Shown piece by piece: positions 2,212-56,666 of a DNA stretch of 57,858 nucleotides. The position numbers were made by a program, and so were the translations under genes. Source of the stretch: Candidatus Kaiserbacteria bacterium. Its GTDB lineage: Bacteria > Patescibacteriota > Minisyncoccia > Phycocordibacterales > UBA918. The notes below the pieces were generated by a model, which saw only the letters and a program-made list of their open reading frames with translations, was not told the origin of the DNA and made no database searches. Position 1 is the first letter of the stretch, and each line of letters starts with the position of its first letter. The stretch lies in contig JAGQMC010000042.1 of assembly GCA_020428815.1 (NCBI GenBank), forward strand, positions 1 to 57,858, written 5' to 3'.

Positions 2212-2261
2212 AGAATAAAATTATGTTTTTATACCTTATATTCTAGCATAAGGAGCATATA

Positions 2262-2300
2262 AAGACACAAAAGTAGCGAGTGGTTCTAACACCCTGCTAC
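2262..2300 (-). terminator. candidate intrinsic terminator after CDS 2328..3086
   Basis: Hairpin GTAGC(2273-2277)/GCTAC(2296-2300) with additional inner pairs, followed on the minus strand by TTTTGTGTCTTT. Confidence 0.45.
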
Positions 2301-2327
2301 ACATTCTATCAGCGAATAATTTAACAT

Positions 2328-3086
2328 CTACACTGTCCCCCACTCCTGTTCTTTATCTGACAGATCTTGAGCGTTAAAGGCCGAACCGCTCCTATGCTCA
2401 TCTTCTCGTTGCAGTAAATACATGCGTCTAGCTTGAGTATCTAAATAAACAGCGGTGGCTCCTCGCTTGTCCGACTTTGGTTGGAAAACAACAGGCTGAA
2501 AGCCAAAAGTCTGTACCACCTCATCAGCTAAAAGATCAATGACTTGGTGGTAATCCGCATTATCTTCAGGCTGGTCAAGCACACTTCTGCCTCCAAATAT
2601 GACAATATCGACTGATTGGGGGACTGAGCGTTGTTTAAGTTCTGTAAATTTATCAGAAATTTTGTGCATGAACTTATCACCATCGGTTTCGGACTTAAGG
2701 AAGTAATTTGGGTCTTGGTGAGATAAAAAAGACACATTTTCACCAGTTAGAGAATCTATTCCGACACCAATAACACCAGTACAGTTATAAAATCTCTTGG
2801 AGAACTTACTGTTGTCATCAATCCCAGAGATGATCACTAAGTGTTCCTTGCCGTTGTCTAAAAAGACTAAGTTATTCTTTTCGTGGTTCGAGTTATAACG
2901 GGCGAATTCCACGTCTACTCCCTCAGCTATGATTTCTCTCATCTTCTGTGAGGTGAAGCTGTCAATGTCGTCCATATTAACCACACTGGCAATCAACGGT
3001 CTGACTTCCTCACTCAAATGTTTACCGTGAAGCGGGCTAACATGCAAATCTTCAAATTTTTCGTAGTTTTCAACAGCTCCTTCCAT
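2328..3086 (-). CDS. hypothetical protein (possible CheD-like Cys/His fold, weak)
   Basis: 252-aa ORF with normal composition and no overlapping competitor of similar length. The motifs NCTGVIGVGID...SFLSHQDP and IVIFGGRSV faintly recall the CheD deamidase signatures. Confidence 0.7.
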   Translation of the reverse strand: MEGAVENYEKFEDLHVSPLHGKHLSEEVRPLIASVVNMDDIDSFTSQKMREIIAEGVDVEFARYNSNHEKNNLVFLDNGKEHLVIISGIDDNSKFSKRFYNCTGVIGVGIDSLTGENVSFLSHQDPNYFLKSETDGDKFMHKISDKFTELKQRSVPQSVDIVIFGGRSVLDQPEDNADYHQVIDLLADEVVQTFGFQPVVFQPKSDKRGATAVYLDTQARRMYLLQREDEHRSGSAFNAQDLSDKEQEWGTV

Positions 3087-3165
3087 ATAACTGATCTGTA
3101 GTAGTGAGTAGGATTACTTAAAACACTTAATTAATTTAGTAAGATTTTAGCATAAAAGACACCTA

Positions 3166-3205
3166 TAAAAAGCAAAAGCCACCGAAGCGACTTCGCTTGG
3201 TGGCT
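3166..3205 (-). terminator. intrinsic terminator after CDS 3221..3595
   Basis: AGCCACC(3177-3183)/GGTGGCT(3199-3205) plus inner AAGCG/CGCTT. On the minus strand it is followed by TTTTGCTTTTT. Confidence 0.8.
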
Positions 3206-3220
3206 GAGTTAGCTCACTGT

Positions 3221-3595
3221 CTAGAAACGATCGGGCGTACCTTCAATCGAATCGAGACCGTGGCCGCACACAGGACGTGATGGCGTAATACGTGAAGTTG
3301 AGTCATCCAGTTCGTTCTGAAGAATCTTCAACTTACGACGCTTGCCCCCACTGACTTTCAAAGCTTTACTATACGCCTTTAATTGGCGGTCGTAAAACTT
3401 GTAAAGCTCCACACTCACCCTTCCGTCCCTCAGCGAGTGACGATCTGCGGGGAACTTCTGCTTCAAAAGCTGAAGCCCCTTTTCGGATTCCGAGTAAAAC
3501 TCAGAGACCCGCTGAATTATGTCGCCATAACTCAACTTGGACTCTCTGTAATACTCAGATGGAGCAAAATCTTCGTAAGTGTATTCCATAACCAT
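3221..3595 (-). CDS. hypothetical protein
   Basis: 124-aa ORF with a terminator directly downstream. No recognisable motifs. Confidence 0.65.
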   Translation of the reverse strand: MVMEYTYEDFAPSEYYRESKLSYGDIIQRVSEFYSESEKGLQLLKQKFPADRHSLRDGRVSVELYKFYDRQLKAYSKALKVSGGKRRKLKILQNELDDSTSRITPSRPVCGHGLDSIEGTPDRF

Positions 3596-3698
3596 GGCCT
3601 CCCTATGCCGAATTGGTTAATCTGTACATATTATGCACTCTATTTCATATTTGTCAAACACAATATGGGCATGCAATAAAAAACAACCTTAAGATTAC

Positions 3699-3726
3699 TT
3701 GACAAAGTATTTTAATTATGTATAAT
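3699..3726 (+). promoter_or_regulatory. consensus sigma70-type promoter (TTGACA-16 nt-TATAAT)
   Basis: TTGACA at 3699-3704 and TATAAT at 3721-3726, with a 16-nt spacer. Predicted TSS near 3733. Confidence 0.7.
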
Positions 3727-3732
3727 ACCAGC

Positions 3733-3994
3733 ATTCAACTTGGAGCCGAAAGAGGCAATACCACTCACCTGGTTGAATATCAGTGCTACATGGAATGCGG
3801 ACCCCATGATGACGCCCGCGTACACTGGTTAGGGGGTCCAGCTTGCTGGAGCGCCAAGGTTCCCCTGTGGTCTAGGGAGGCATGCGATGCGAGGCCAAAA
3901 AGACAAGAGTGGAAGGGGTGGCTTAGGAGCCACGTGGAGTTGCAGGATGTAACCCACAATCCCCGGCCTCATGTGTGCACGCATGGGGTTTTTT
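3733..3994 (+). ncRNA. unclassified GC-rich structured RNA; candidate riboswitch leader or stand-alone ncRNA
   Basis: 39/60 G+C in 3831-3890 versus 16/60 in 3661-3720. Helices: 3733-3739/3772-3778, 3779-3785/3823-3829, 3789-3793/3804-3808, 3831-3836/3861-3866, 3837-3841/3846-3850 (CUUG loop), 3918-3923/3928-3933 (UAGG loop). Bounded by a promoter and an intrinsic terminator. Confidence 0.6.
3967..3994 (+). terminator. intrinsic terminator closing the structured RNA
   Basis: 9-bp stem 3967-3975/3980-3988 (including 2 G-U pairs) with a TGCA loop, immediately followed by TTTTTT (3989-3994). Confidence 0.8.
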
Positions 3995-4070
3995 CTTTAT
4001 TGACTAATCAGACTCAAAATACTAGTCTGTTTCCGGACCATTTGAACCTTTAAAGCAAGGAGAAAATAAA

Positions 4071-4337
4071 TTGAGCGATTCAATCTACTATGGACCAGAA
4101 GATATGGACCGGGTTCCACCGGCAGTTCAGACTGAAATGAAAAACGGCTGTCAGGGAGTACGTTTTTACCCTAATGGCTTTGAAATGACCGAGGAATGTG
4201 GTTGTTGTGACTCGCAAACTCGACCTGGTTGGTACGCTAGTCGCACCGTTATATCGAATGTAATTGACGCCATTCCTGGGAAGTTCATTTGTGAGATTGA
4301 TGGTACTCCTGCCAAACAACCCATGTGGTGGCTCTAA
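4071..4337 (+). CDS. small Cys-rich protein (88 aa), unknown function
   Basis: AAGGAG at 4057-4062 lies 8 nt before a TTG start. 5 Cys including a CGCC cluster. Its own terminator follows at 4354-4382. Confidence 0.55.
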   Translation: MSDSIYYGPEDMDRVPPAVQTEMKNGCQGVRFYPNGFEMTEECGCCDSQTRPGWYASRTVISNVIDAIPGKFICEIDGTPAKQPMWWL

Positions 4338-4353
4338 AAAGTGCACCAAAAAT

Positions 4354-4382
4354 CAACCCGCTTTGTAGCGGGTTGTTGTTTT
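4354..4382 (+). terminator. intrinsic terminator after the small ORF
   Basis: CAACCCGC(4354-4361)/GCGGGTTG(4368-4375), 6-nt loop, then TTGTTTT. Confidence 0.8.
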
Positions 4383-5097
4383 AAAAGACCACATCTGCAT
4401 CTACACGCAACAGCGGAATGTTTGTGTGTTTGTCCAACTCGGCGACCATGGCTACCATGTCACCGATAGTTGCTGGTTGAATGGCCTTTTCCGCCTGATC
4501 TCCCAAGTTAGCCGTCATACTTTCAGTATTGATTACAGCCGGCTGGATATCAGTAACATGAACAATTTCACCGGTCGCAGCGCTTAATTGTTCAACAAAG
4601 CTGCTGATACCACTTTTGGCTGGTGCGTAGGCCATATTATTTTCAAGCACCTTATAAGCGGCATGTGAAGAAATATTTATAATTCTTCCTCCTCGATTTT
4701 CCTTTAAATACTTAGTTGCTCTAAACATAGCCATAGCCGGACCAACTAGATTTTGGGCCACCATGGAGTTTGTATCTTCTACAAACTTTTCAAAACTGTC
4801 ATCTAGACTGGTAGCAACATGCCCACCAGCGGCGACCACGACTAGGTTAATTGGGTTAGTAAAAGAACTTTCAATTTCTGAAAACAAATTATCAATAGAT
4901 TCGCTTTCAGATAAATCAGCAGCAATTATAGTTACACAATCCTTTGAAAAACTATCTGCAAAAACAGTTAACTTTTCTTTGTTTCGAGCCGAGAGAACCA
5001 CATGAAAACCAGCTTCTATTAGTTTTAAAACTATATCTTTGCCAACTCCTCCAGTTGCGCCAATTACTAACGCATTTTTTATATTATCTGTTTTCAT
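4381..5097 (-). CDS. SDR family oxidoreductase
   Basis: 238 aa. N-terminal GATGGVG Rossmann motif, NISS, and YxxxK (YAPAK) catalytic motif. Confidence 0.85.
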   Translation of the reverse strand: MKTDNIKNALVIGATGGVGKDIVLKLIEAGFHVVLSARNKEKLTVFADSFSKDCVTIIAADLSESESIDNLFSEIESSFTNPINLVVVAAGGHVATSLDDSFEKFVEDTNSMVAQNLVGPAMAMFRATKYLKENRGGRIINISSHAAYKVLENNMAYAPAKSGISSFVEQLSAATGEIVHVTDIQPAVINTESMTANLGDQAEKAIQPATIGDMVAMVAELDKHTNIPLLRVDADVVF

Positions 5098-5172
5098 AAT
5101 TTTTCTCCGTTCAGGACTATGTTTTTATTACTACTTATTCAAGTAAATATTACAGTAGAGCTCTGGGAAAGC

Positions 5173-5224
5173 AAAAGGCCGGCGCAAAGCGCCGGCCTTT
5201 TGTCCCGAGGTCCATCCTCGGGAC
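5173..5224 (-). terminator. tandem GC hairpins terminating groEL
   Basis: GTCCCGAGG(5202-5210)/CCTCGGGAC(5216-5224), then GGCCGGCGC(5177-5185)/GCGCCGGCC(5189-5197). The second hairpin is flanked by A4/T4 runs. Confidence 0.8.
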
Positions 5225-5255
5225 AAAATTAAGTTTCTTCGATTTTTTGAGCTTT

Positions 5256-6911
<1,656 letters not shown>

Positions 6912-43749: not shown

Positions 43750-43960
43750 TACTTAATAACAGAAAGATAAAGGCCTCATAAATATGCGGGACCTAAAAGT
43801 CCACCAGATATTGTCACCAACTACTATTGTTTCTTTTCTGGACCCATGCACACTACACTTAGTAAAACCGTGGTCGTACTAACTCTGAGATATACATAAG
43901 ATCAAAATGTGCTGCCCAAGCCGTAACCTAGACATGACACACATTTCAATTTGATTATAC

Positions 43961-43997
43961 AAAAAAAATCCCTCGGGCGCGCGAAGCGTCCGAGGGA
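43961..43997 (-). terminator. strong intrinsic terminator after the high-GC gene
   Basis: TCCCTCGG(43969-43976)/CCGAGGGA(43990-43997). On the minus strand it is followed by T8. Confidence 0.9.
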
Positions 43998-44022
43998 CAA
44001 AGGTTCAAAGGGCTGAAAGAGC

Positions 44023-44649
44023 TCAGGCCTGAGTGGCAGTTGCCGAGAATGCCCGATCGCCAGGATCGCCAGCACGCCACCGATAGCCACCGGGGCGATA
44101 GGCGCTGCAGCCCCACCACCGGTAGTCGGCGCTCCAGTCGACGCTGACAGCGAAGACTTCACCGTTCACCTTCACGTAGAAGATGTTGGCGTAGCCATTG
44201 TTGAGGAGCGTGCCTTCCTTGCCACCCCACTGACCCTCGATGAGAGTCGCGAGGTGAGCGAGAAACGTATCGACGTCCTCGAAGACGTAGCCTTCGGGGA
44301 GTTCGCTACCGATCTCGGCGTCGTTGGCGGATTGAGCCAAGTCAGCGTAGCCGACGACCATTTCATTCACCGACACCTTCTTCTTCGATAACCCAGAAAG
44401 GATGTAGTCGTTGAAGTTGTTCGACGTCCACAAACCTTCACGGGTCTGGAAGAAGTCGTGCGGATTGACGGTGTTGCTGGCGACGCCGAGCGAGGTCAGG
44501 CTGGTGAGGCGAGTTTCTGCCGGAACGAGTCCAGACAGAAGTTTCTTGAGGGCCTTGGGATTGTCAATCCAGCCCTGCATCACCTCCGGAGACATGTTCG
44601 GTGTATTTTCGAACATGCGTGCCCAAAATTTCATCTCTTGCTTGTTCAT
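44023..44649 (-). CDS. hypothetical protein, compositionally foreign (high-GC)
   Basis: 208-aa ORF with AAGGAG 7 nt upstream of the ATG. 40/60 G+C in 44041-44100 versus 20/60 in 43741-43800. Long ORFs in several frames are typical of high-GC DNA. Confidence 0.75.
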   Translation of the reverse strand: MNKQEMKFWARMFENTPNMSPEVMQGWIDNPKALKKLLSGLVPAETRLTSLTSLGVASNTVNPHDFFQTREGLWTSNNFNDYILSGLSKKKVSVNEMVVGYADLAQSANDAEIGSELPEGYVFEDVDTFLAHLATLIEGQWGGKEGTLLNNGYANIFYVKVNGEVFAVSVDWSADYRWWGCSAYRPGGYRWRAGDPGDRAFSATATQA

Positions 44650-56270: not shown

Positions 56271-56387
56271 ATTTTCTATTTATTACTTCAGTCTATACAG
56301 GAGCATCGTCCTTGGTAAAAGTCTCATTTTTTCCCATAAAAAAATTCTATCACAGGTTTAGTTGCCTACGCTAGGTTTTATACAAAT

Positions 56388-56632
56388 AAAAAGACCTGAT
56401 GGCTCTGCGATGAAATGCAGTAGCCACCAGGCCAGCGTGTCGAATCACAATCTGATGTAGAGCCAAGCGATATTTCAAAAGCGCTCGACTGAGGTCTTGC
56501 TCGTCACGTGGACCTTCAGATTTGTGTGACTGGGGTCATGAACCTCACTCAGACACGCACCTGCCGTCATTGGGTACGACAGGGTGGTAGGAGCGGCGTG
56601 CTCCCTACTCAGCGCTAGCAATTACGCAGAGT
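56388..56632 (-). ncRNA. unclassified GC-rich structured RNA / 5' leader of the 961-aa protein gene
   Basis: 37/60 G+C in 56541-56600. Helices: 56587-56594/56600-56608, 56560-56567/56576-56583, 56489-56496/56510-56519, 56401-56408/56417-56425, and long-range 56445-56451/56552-56558. A promoter lies directly upstream on the minus strand. Confidence 0.5.
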
Positions 56633-56638
56633 TTCAAC

Positions 56639-56666
56639 ATAATACATGAAATTTAGATATTGTCAA
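56639..56666 (-). promoter_or_regulatory. candidate promoter (TTGACA-16 nt-TATTAT) for the structured RNA / giant-protein operon
   Basis: On the minus strand, -35 lies at 56661-56666 and -10 at 56639-56644. Predicted TSS near 56632. Confidence 0.55.

Follow-up and report, generated by a model that had tools for sequence, protein, structure and literature searches.

What is produced from a promoter of perfect consensus which leads, through a GC-rich segment, directly into an intrinsic terminator? The question is raised by a locus on the plus strand of contig JAGQMC010000042.1, whose 57,858 nucleotides (nt) were analysed as a whole and are called here the window. A first-pass annotation of this DNA had seen in the locus a candidate riboswitch or non-coding RNA lying upstream of a Cys-rich open reading frame (ORF) of 88 amino acids (aa). 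The element in question, referred to as RNA1, is the non-coding transcript of about 262 nt predicted from positions 3733 to 3994 (plus strand). As read from the sequence and from the loci of relatives, it has a promoter and a terminator of its own, carries no coding signal, belongs to no known family and is located in an inserted block. The reading that we favour, tentatively and at somewhat less than even confidence, is that RNA1 is a stand-alone, strongly transcribed and lineage-specific small RNA (sRNA) gene. RNA1 would in that case be made, be stable and act in trans, by base-pairing or by protein binding.

Promoter, terminator and composition of RNA1

The putative promoter, TTGACA-16-TATAAT (3699-3726, plus strand), matches the sigma-70-type consensus in 12 of 12 positions, as had been claimed, and its predicted transcription start is at about 3733. 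It is the only perfect promoter in the 57.9-kb window, where ~0.07 would be expected by chance, and matches of at least 11/12 number three: that of RNA1, that of its divergent neighbour and that of a second ORF-less GC-rich unit at 56666 (minus strand). In a relative (L016) the GroES gene is preceded, at ~117 nt, by a 12/12 promoter, which suggests that in this lineage highly expressed genes make use of the TTGACA/TATAAT consensus. At the other end of the unit, the clean intrinsic terminator followed by six T residues that had been proposed was recovered (3965-3994, plus strand) as an 11-bp stem, GGCCUCAUGUG/CGCAUGGGGUU (3965-3990), closed by a UGCA loop and followed by U6 (T6 at 3989-3994). 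The hairpin is worth 11.7 kcal/mol and its pairing probability in the full transcript is 0.97. Since the minus strand has no T-run at this position, the terminator is predicted to act on the plus strand only.

The segment enclosed by these signals is G-rich on the sense strand and contains 55.7% guanine plus cytosine (G+C), against 41.1% in the whole window and 30-43% in the other intergenic regions, being the second-richest 260-nt stretch of the window in G+C. The local contrast noted beforehand, 39/60 at 3831-3890 versus 16/60 at 3661-3720, was reproduced. All three signals, promoter, terminator and GC excess, are beyond chance. As in bacterial sRNA genes, an own promoter and a Rho-independent terminator bracket an intergenic segment within the range of 50-300 nt. 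RNA polymerase would start at the consensus promoter and, by default, stop at the strong intrinsic terminator, releasing a G-rich RNA of ~262 nt.

Coding potential

The segment is spanned by an ORF of 111 aa (3718-4053), which gene callers predicted in seven contigs, and hence it was considered that the region could encode a protein, be it this ORF, a shorter form from ATG 3790 or a peptide of 21 aa. That a frame stays open over 111 codons is a little surprising (~0.01-0.04, own estimate), and the 21-aa ORF (ATG 3887 to TAA 3952, plus strand) begins 7 nt after a Shine-Dalgarno (SD)-like GGGAGG, that is, with a good SD and a good spacing. However, the first ATG of the 111-aa ORF falls between the -35 and -10 boxes of the promoter, the frame crosses the intrinsic terminator and ATG 3790 lacks an SD. 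Moreover, its translation contains 17% W+C+H, and its codon score, -0.14 per codon, is like that of non-coding DNA and below that of all 88-codon windows of real genes (training minimum 0.019). A phmmer search against 1.84 billion representative proteins matched only the ORF itself, and Pfam, PHROGs, PADLOC and NCBIfam all returned no match. On account of the overlap with promoter and terminator, the W+C+H content, the codon score and the lack of homologues and domain matches, the 111-aa ORF is very unlikely to be a real gene, and protein coding by the region in any of the three forms is highly improbable. The codon score and the empty homologue and domain searches give RNA1 the absence of protein-coding signal proper to an sRNA, with the 21-aa ORF as a possible small ORF within it. 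More generally, no protein similarity was found for any of the three ORFs that overlap RNA1 (plus strand, 111 aa; minus strand, 57 and 51 aa).

Searches for known families and for homologues

The statement of the first-pass annotation that RNA1 fits no known RNA family was sustained by Rfam 15 covariance models in three scopes and by ARAGORN. At the gathering threshold the whole window gave two tRNAs only; at E<=10, with permissive filters and with scopes reduced as far as the isolated 270 nt, there was no plus-strand match in 3727-3996; and ARAGORN detected no tmRNA. RNase P, SRP, 6S and tmRNA identities were rejected by motif inspection together with the covariance-model searches.

Searches for relatives of RNA1 were equally silent. 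Nothing was found by nhmmer in 237-244 kb of relatives' loci or by BLAST against phages and plasmids, nor did six degenerate 24-nt patterns, derived from RNA1 translated as pseudo-protein, match anything in IMG/VR or the JGI metagenomes. In 237 kb, a covariance model built on the 3' domain of RNA1 recovered only the domain itself, with no second copy. The flanking orphan genes offered a synteny route to homologues, which failed, as among 5.8e9 proteins the 88-aa protein and the 124-aa product of the divergent gene have only matches at least 97% identical. The contigs that contain RNA1 elsewhere (L025, and short contigs from several ENA and Logan metagenome assemblies) present an identical context and a sequence identical but for one single-nucleotide polymorphism (SNP). 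The contigs derive from ERZ28655133, ERZ27309393, ERZ28655857, ERZ795057, SRR15882951 and SRR6747717. Because all these copies are clonal, the population data give no covariation. A scan of GTDB genome contigs with the SDR protein encoded next to the 88-aa ORF gave distant SDRs only (24-29% identity), which suggests that the species is absent from the GTDB representative genomes.

Folding of RNA1

Six or more nested helices had been described by eye in RNA1. All those listed are present, among them the hairpin UCCAG-CUUG-CUGGA (3837-3850) inside the helix AGGGGG/UCCCCU (3831-3836/3861-3866), the hairpin GUGGCU-UAGG-AGCCAC (3918-3933), confirmed at the positions first given for it, and the 7-bp helix AUCAGUG/CACUGGU (3779-3785/3823-3829), all on the plus strand. 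The fold as a whole does not exceed chance: its minimum free energy (MFE) is -96.3 kcal/mol, with z = -0.70 and -0.92 against dinucleotide shuffles in two runs, and six helices found by eye are expected anyway from a G-rich sequence of such composition. Structure is supported for the 3' domain alone (3915-3964, plus strand; z = -2.9 for 3900-3964), where a GGG/CCC closing helix surrounds two hairpins, GUGGCU-UAGG-AGCCAC and GUGG-A-GUUGCA-GGA-UGUAAC-CCAC, with GGA exposed in both loops. The 5' part (3733-3830) deviates weakly, with z = -1.7, and the centre (3779-3900), the putative core of an aptamer, folds no better than shuffled sequence. In the released RNA1 the best-defined structure would be the two-hairpin 3' domain followed by the terminator hairpin.

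Genomic setting

GroEL of the window (gene at 5256-6908, minus strand) shares 85-92% identity with GroEL proteins that carry the label Candidatus Kaiserbacteria, Nomurabacteria, Parcubacteria or Pacebacteria, a placement which assigns the organism to the Parcubacteria, within the Patescibacteria. Together with the empty Rfam and tmRNA searches and the codon score, it bears out the earlier description of a promoter-to-terminator non-coding RNA, of no known family, in a Patescibacteria genome. The loci of relatives were fetched through GroEL homologues, and L023 and L024 came from a JGI scan. All of those fetched have GroES, GroEL and LemA in this order, with HtpX, usually accompanied by an ORF of 127-129 aa, further downstream where the contig reaches. 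The gap between GroEL and LemA is 60-420 nt in the relatives and ~3 kb in the window, where the stretch between LemA (1627-2211) and GroEL contains an orphan gene of 252 aa (minus strand), an orphan gene of 124 aa (minus strand), RNA1 (plus strand), the 88-aa ORF (plus strand) and an SDR gene (minus strand).

In the closest relatives LemA either adjoins GroEL or is followed by a 105-nt gap, a small ORF and GroEL. The block from 2212 to 3999, running from the LemA promoter region to a promoter-like element of the small ORF and carrying on its two strands the 252-aa gene (-), the 124-aa gene (-) and RNA1 (+), is absent from the closest syntenic relatives. The comparison indicates that RNA1 and both orphan genes form a species-specific insertion immediately 5' of that promoter-like element. 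RNA1 would thus have been acquired or retained in a block of ~1.8 kb with two orphan protein genes.

An inserted segment need not have a function, and RNA1 could be transcribed DNA without one, a foreign fragment of higher GC or a decayed gene fallen between a promoter and a terminator. Its situation within the insertion, the presence in the window of another clearly foreign GC-rich gene (44023-44649, 57-63% G+C), a fold not beyond chance and the lack of detected homologues are all consistent with this. Nevertheless, the limits of the GC-rich segment coincide exactly with a perfect promoter and a strong terminator, an arrangement unlikely to have come about by accident; the three overlapping ORFs show no protein similarity; RNA1 is identical, one SNP apart, in all the metagenome contigs recovered; and the small genomes of Patescibacteria keep little non-functional DNA. 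We consider therefore a functionless RNA1 unlikely.

The junction between LemA and GroEL is in itself a variable slot, as seen by comparing window positions 2212-5255 with six relatives' loci (L012, L017, L020, L021, L023 and L024): one lineage holds there a Cys-rich ORF of 81 aa alone, and the present species ~3 kb with four genes and RNA1. The SDR gene (4381-5097, minus strand) is a second insertion, located between the small ORF and GroEL.

Relation of RNA1 to the 88-aa gene

The gene located 3' of RNA1 was found as it had been described: an SD AAGGAG (4057-4062), a TTG start at 4071 and an ORF of 88 aa with five Cys (4057-4337 with its SD, plus strand), followed by a terminator. The latter (4354-4375) is bidirectional and common to this ORF (+) and the SDR gene (-). 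A tblastn search with the proteins of the island identified in L020, L023 and L024 an ORF of 81 aa that shares 38% identity with the 88-aa protein over residues 1-55 of the latter and conserves YGP (YGPxD), PP.V, CGCC, PGWY and FIC. It occupies the same slot in the same orientation, the order being HtpX, 127aa, LemA, small ORF, GroEL, GroES (the L020 copy is at 6043-6288, minus strand). Given that this syntenic homologue is only 38% identical whereas the neighbouring genes are 80-90% identical between the two lineages, the small ORF is a real, fast-evolving gene, older than and separate from RNA1. Its N-terminus is conserved in the homologue, which supports the TTG at 4071 as the right start and the 77-aa form of the NCBI record, from ATG 4104, as a truncated call.

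The start of the 81-aa ORF lies 105 nt from that of LemA, preceded at 62 nt by its own promoter, TTGACT-17-GATATT, and by no sequence similar to RNA1. In the window, a weak promoter-like element, TTGACT-17-TAGTCT (4000-4028, plus strand), which is below the threshold of the general promoter scan, is found directly after the RNA1 terminator. As the small ORF of the relatives has no RNA1 and a promoter of its own, the comparison argues that RNA1 is not a conserved leader of the 88-aa gene.

A leader confined to this species would still be conceivable, with RNA1 acting in cis as a riboswitch or as a protein- or RNA-responsive attenuator of the 88-aa gene. In such a scheme the terminator would be the default OFF state, and a signal stabilizing a competing helix would let the strong promoter read into the gene. 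RNA1 and the 88-aa ORF are on one strand, 76 nt separate the end of the terminator from the ORF start, and the own -10 box of the ORF is weak. The switch first suggested relied on CCCC at 3961-3964, but both in the MFE structure and in the ensemble this pairing and the terminator are not mutually exclusive. With the complete terminator formed (P = 0.97), CCC 3962-3964 is still paired to GGG 3915-3917, and since both coexist the CCCC alternative is not a switch. The sole real candidate for an antiterminator pairing is that of GAGGCC (3891-3896, plus strand) with GGCCUC (3965-3970), the six bases that open the 5' arm of the terminator. Folding of nascent transcripts gave for it P = 0.55-0.84 before the 3' arm is made and 0.03 afterwards, when the terminator beats it by 11.7 kcal/mol. 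A 6-mer complement of this type is expected ~0.4 times by chance (own estimate), and with a 6-bp competing pairing at the chance level, attenuation at RNA1 appears possible but is not indicated.

The remaining evidence does not help the leader. No Rfam aptamer class matched the isolated 270 nt; the putative aptamer core lacks any excess of structure; and the aptamer-like region appeared in none of the other sequences searched, whereas riboswitch aptamers are typically widespread. A riboswitch is also kept with the gene that it regulates, and the small ORFs of L020, L023 and L024 stand without it. With a non-competing pairing, a promoter-like element interposed between terminator and ORF and a leaderless homologue in the same slot, the riboswitch proposal of the first-pass annotation found no support, and a cis-acting leader of any kind is distinctly unlikely. 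The 88-aa gene would rather be a distinct unit of greater age, transcribed from a weak promoter of its own and receiving at most some read-through from RNA1.

Other properties of the small ORF are recorded here for completeness. Its protein belongs to a tiny Cys-rich family found in two Parcubacteria lineages only, and has no match in Pfam or among PADLOC defence and toxin models. PDB sequence searches with the neighbouring proteins were negative; the AlphaFold2 confidence (predicted local distance difference test, pLDDT) was 49 for the 88-aa protein and 41 for the 252-aa protein, too poor for a fold search. A perfect palindrome, CAGACT-N9-AGTCTG (4009-4029), overlaps the weak -10-like box and could be an operator site. 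A metagenome contig (L001) differs from window positions 4128-4139, within the ORF, by five clustered changes to A (C, G, C, T and G to A; Q20K, T21N and M23K), and it has a chimeric tail beyond 4891; the changes are probably an assembly artefact. A diversity-generating retroelement, which they had brought to mind, was dropped on account of the artefact-like pattern and of the lack of a template repeat in the window.

The divergent orphan genes and possible protein binding by RNA1

On the other side of RNA1, the 124-aa gene (3221-3595, minus strand) is its divergent partner, of elevated G+C and atypical codon usage. Its putative promoter, TTGACA-16-CATAAT (3630-3657, minus strand), matches 11/12 positions and has its -35 box 41 nt from that of RNA1. 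A second ATG, at 3589, lies 8 nt after an SD GGGAGG, and the NCBI record has the 122-aa form; translation probably starts there, giving 122 aa. The protein had no match in Pfam, PHROG, PADLOC, NCBIfam or PDB. Further away in the species-specific block, the 252-aa orphan (2328-3086, minus strand) encodes a protein with no match in Pfam, NCBIfam or PDB, whose NCTGV...SHQDP pattern recalls CheD-type cysteine hydrolase motifs.

This arrangement, and the exposed GGA triplets of the 3' domain, raise the idea that RNA1 is a protein-binding RNA, either a sponge which titrates a CsrA-type regulator through GGA loops or a module with the 124-aa protein. The GGA at 3926 and at 3945 have unpaired probabilities of ~1, the two hairpin loops being 19 nt apart, and one of them reads CAGGAUGU, close to the CsrA consensus obtained by systematic evolution of ligands by exponential enrichment (SELEX). 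In ultra-small groundwater prokaryotes, csrA is reported to be among the highly expressed genes (PMC9938205). As to the 124-aa gene, both it and RNA1 have a near-consensus promoter and raised G+C. The 9-mer UAGGGAGGC is common to RNA1, where it is followed 7 nt later by the AUG that opens the 21-aa ORF, and to the SD region of that gene. The mRNA of the gene is also complementary to RNA1 over 10 nt at the 5' end of RNA1. Against these features, GGA is not enriched in RNA1 (9 versus 6.2 expected, P = 0.12), with two to three copies exposed and two of them fully. Neither the window nor the fetched loci contain a csrA gene, and the window has no CsrA-like ORF; no RNA-binding domain could be recognised in the 124-aa protein; and the motifs shared with its gene are near the chance expectation, ~0.04-0.1 (own estimate). 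The shared 9-mer, the 10-nt complementarity and the GGA loops are leads on how RNA1 might act, none of them significant, and protein binding as the role of RNA1 is improbable.

A second unit and another GC-rich gene

A further ORF-less GC-rich unit bounded by promoter and terminator, RNA2, is located on the minus strand at 56385-56666 (RNA 56385-56632). Its putative promoter, TTGACA-16-TATTAT (56666-56639), matches 11/12 positions, and the transcript, of ~245 nt, would end in a long bulged hairpin and UCUUUUUAUUU near 56393. RNA2 lies 115 nt upstream of an ORF of 961 aa with no Pfam match and is divergent from dprA. It cannot be aligned to RNA1 and gave no Rfam match at E<=10, and its MFE of -103.7 kcal/mol (z = -6.0) is far better than that of RNA1, arguably making it the stronger candidate for a structured RNA.

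The GC-rich stretch 43883-44575 corresponds to an ORF of 208 aa (44023-44649, minus strand) with 57-63% G+C, a third-position G+C (GC3) of 0.73, an SD and a terminator of its own and no Pfam match; it has the appearance of a gene acquired recently, by horizontal transfer, from a high-GC donor.

Weighing of the proposal and its implications

The favoured reading of RNA1 as a lineage-specific sRNA gene has to accommodate several observations that weigh against it. The whole RNA folds no better than shuffled sequence. No diverged homologue that could show conservation or covariation was found in relatives' loci, in viral, phage and plasmid sequences or in the JGI metagenomes. When RNA1 was paired with the translation start regions of the genes of the window, the duplex energies did not leave the range given by shuffled RNA, and no target or partner was identified among these genes. 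Finally, the small ORF has in the window a -10 box (TAGTCT) inferior to that of the relative (GATATT), as would be consistent with a gene now dependent on RNA1 read-through. In the arrangement proposed, the 124-aa gene would have a divergent promoter nearly as strong as that of RNA1 and share with RNA1 its raised G+C. A bolder version, that RNA1 is the founder of an undescribed class of Patescibacteria RNA, as a horizontally mobile RNA-protein module with the 124-aa protein or as a new cis-regulatory leader controlling read-through into the fast-evolving Cys-rich small protein, is a long shot.

A literature search found no study of regulatory RNAs in Patescibacteria (Candidate Phyla Radiation), where they are essentially uncharted, and no Hfq or ProQ context is known in this group. 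Two of the three best promoters of the window drive ORF-less GC-rich units, which suggests abundant lineage-specific RNAs even in minimal genomes, and RNA1 and RNA2 together hint at several strongly expressed orphan RNAs in tiny genomes. If RNA1 were a real regulator, it would provide an entry point to post-transcriptional control in uncultivated episymbionts. As a single-species candidate, its value is that of a lead for metatranscriptomics rather than of a discovery.

Comparison with known systems

Terminating riboswitches and leaders, such as those for cobalamin (RF00174), T-box (RF00230) and thiamine pyrophosphate (TPP, RF00059), share with RNA1 a position 5' of an ORF, a 3' terminator and a possible 6-bp antiterminator, and short strings of RNA1 recall their cores (GCCCGC..ACUGG, GGGUGG and ACCUG..AUAUCAG). 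They differ in that RNA1 matched no covariance model at E<=10 and lacks the CUGAGA that defines TPP, and in that the gene located 3' has no link to their ligands, is separated by a promoter-like element and has a leaderless homologue. A by-eye resemblance to the TPP P4/P5 region (ACCUGGUUGAAUAUCAG) was rejected on the same two grounds, the missing CUGAGA and the absence of a covariance-model match.

The sponges CsrB, RsmY and RsmZ are, like RNA1, stand-alone, terminator-ended RNAs with GGA in hairpin loops, one of those of RNA1 being in CAGGAUG. GGA density is ~1 per 15-17 nt in CsrB and RsmZ and ~1 per 29 nt in RNA1, which moreover has two clearly exposed sites, no Rfam match and no csrA nearby. 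Type III toxin-antitoxin systems (ToxIN) present the same order of strong promoter, non-coding RNA, terminator and same-strand protein gene; however, the homologue of the 88-aa gene is found in loci that lack the RNA. A type III antitoxin was rejected, with no tandem repeats in 3733-3994 and no PADLOC or Pfam match for the 88-aa protein.

Species-specific sRNA genes of bacteria are often divergent from a partner gene, as in oxyS-oxyR, gcvB-gcvA and sgrS-sgrR of enterobacteria. RNA1 has no sequence relationship to them, and its 124-aa partner has no recognisable DNA-binding domain. Nevertheless, it shares with them an intergenic location, a sigma-70 promoter, a Rho-independent terminator, a length within 50-300 nt, the absence of coding signal, the divergence from a small neighbouring gene and the residence in lineage-specific DNA. 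In architecture and in its presumed function, RNA1 resembles the ordinary species-specific sRNA genes of bacteria.

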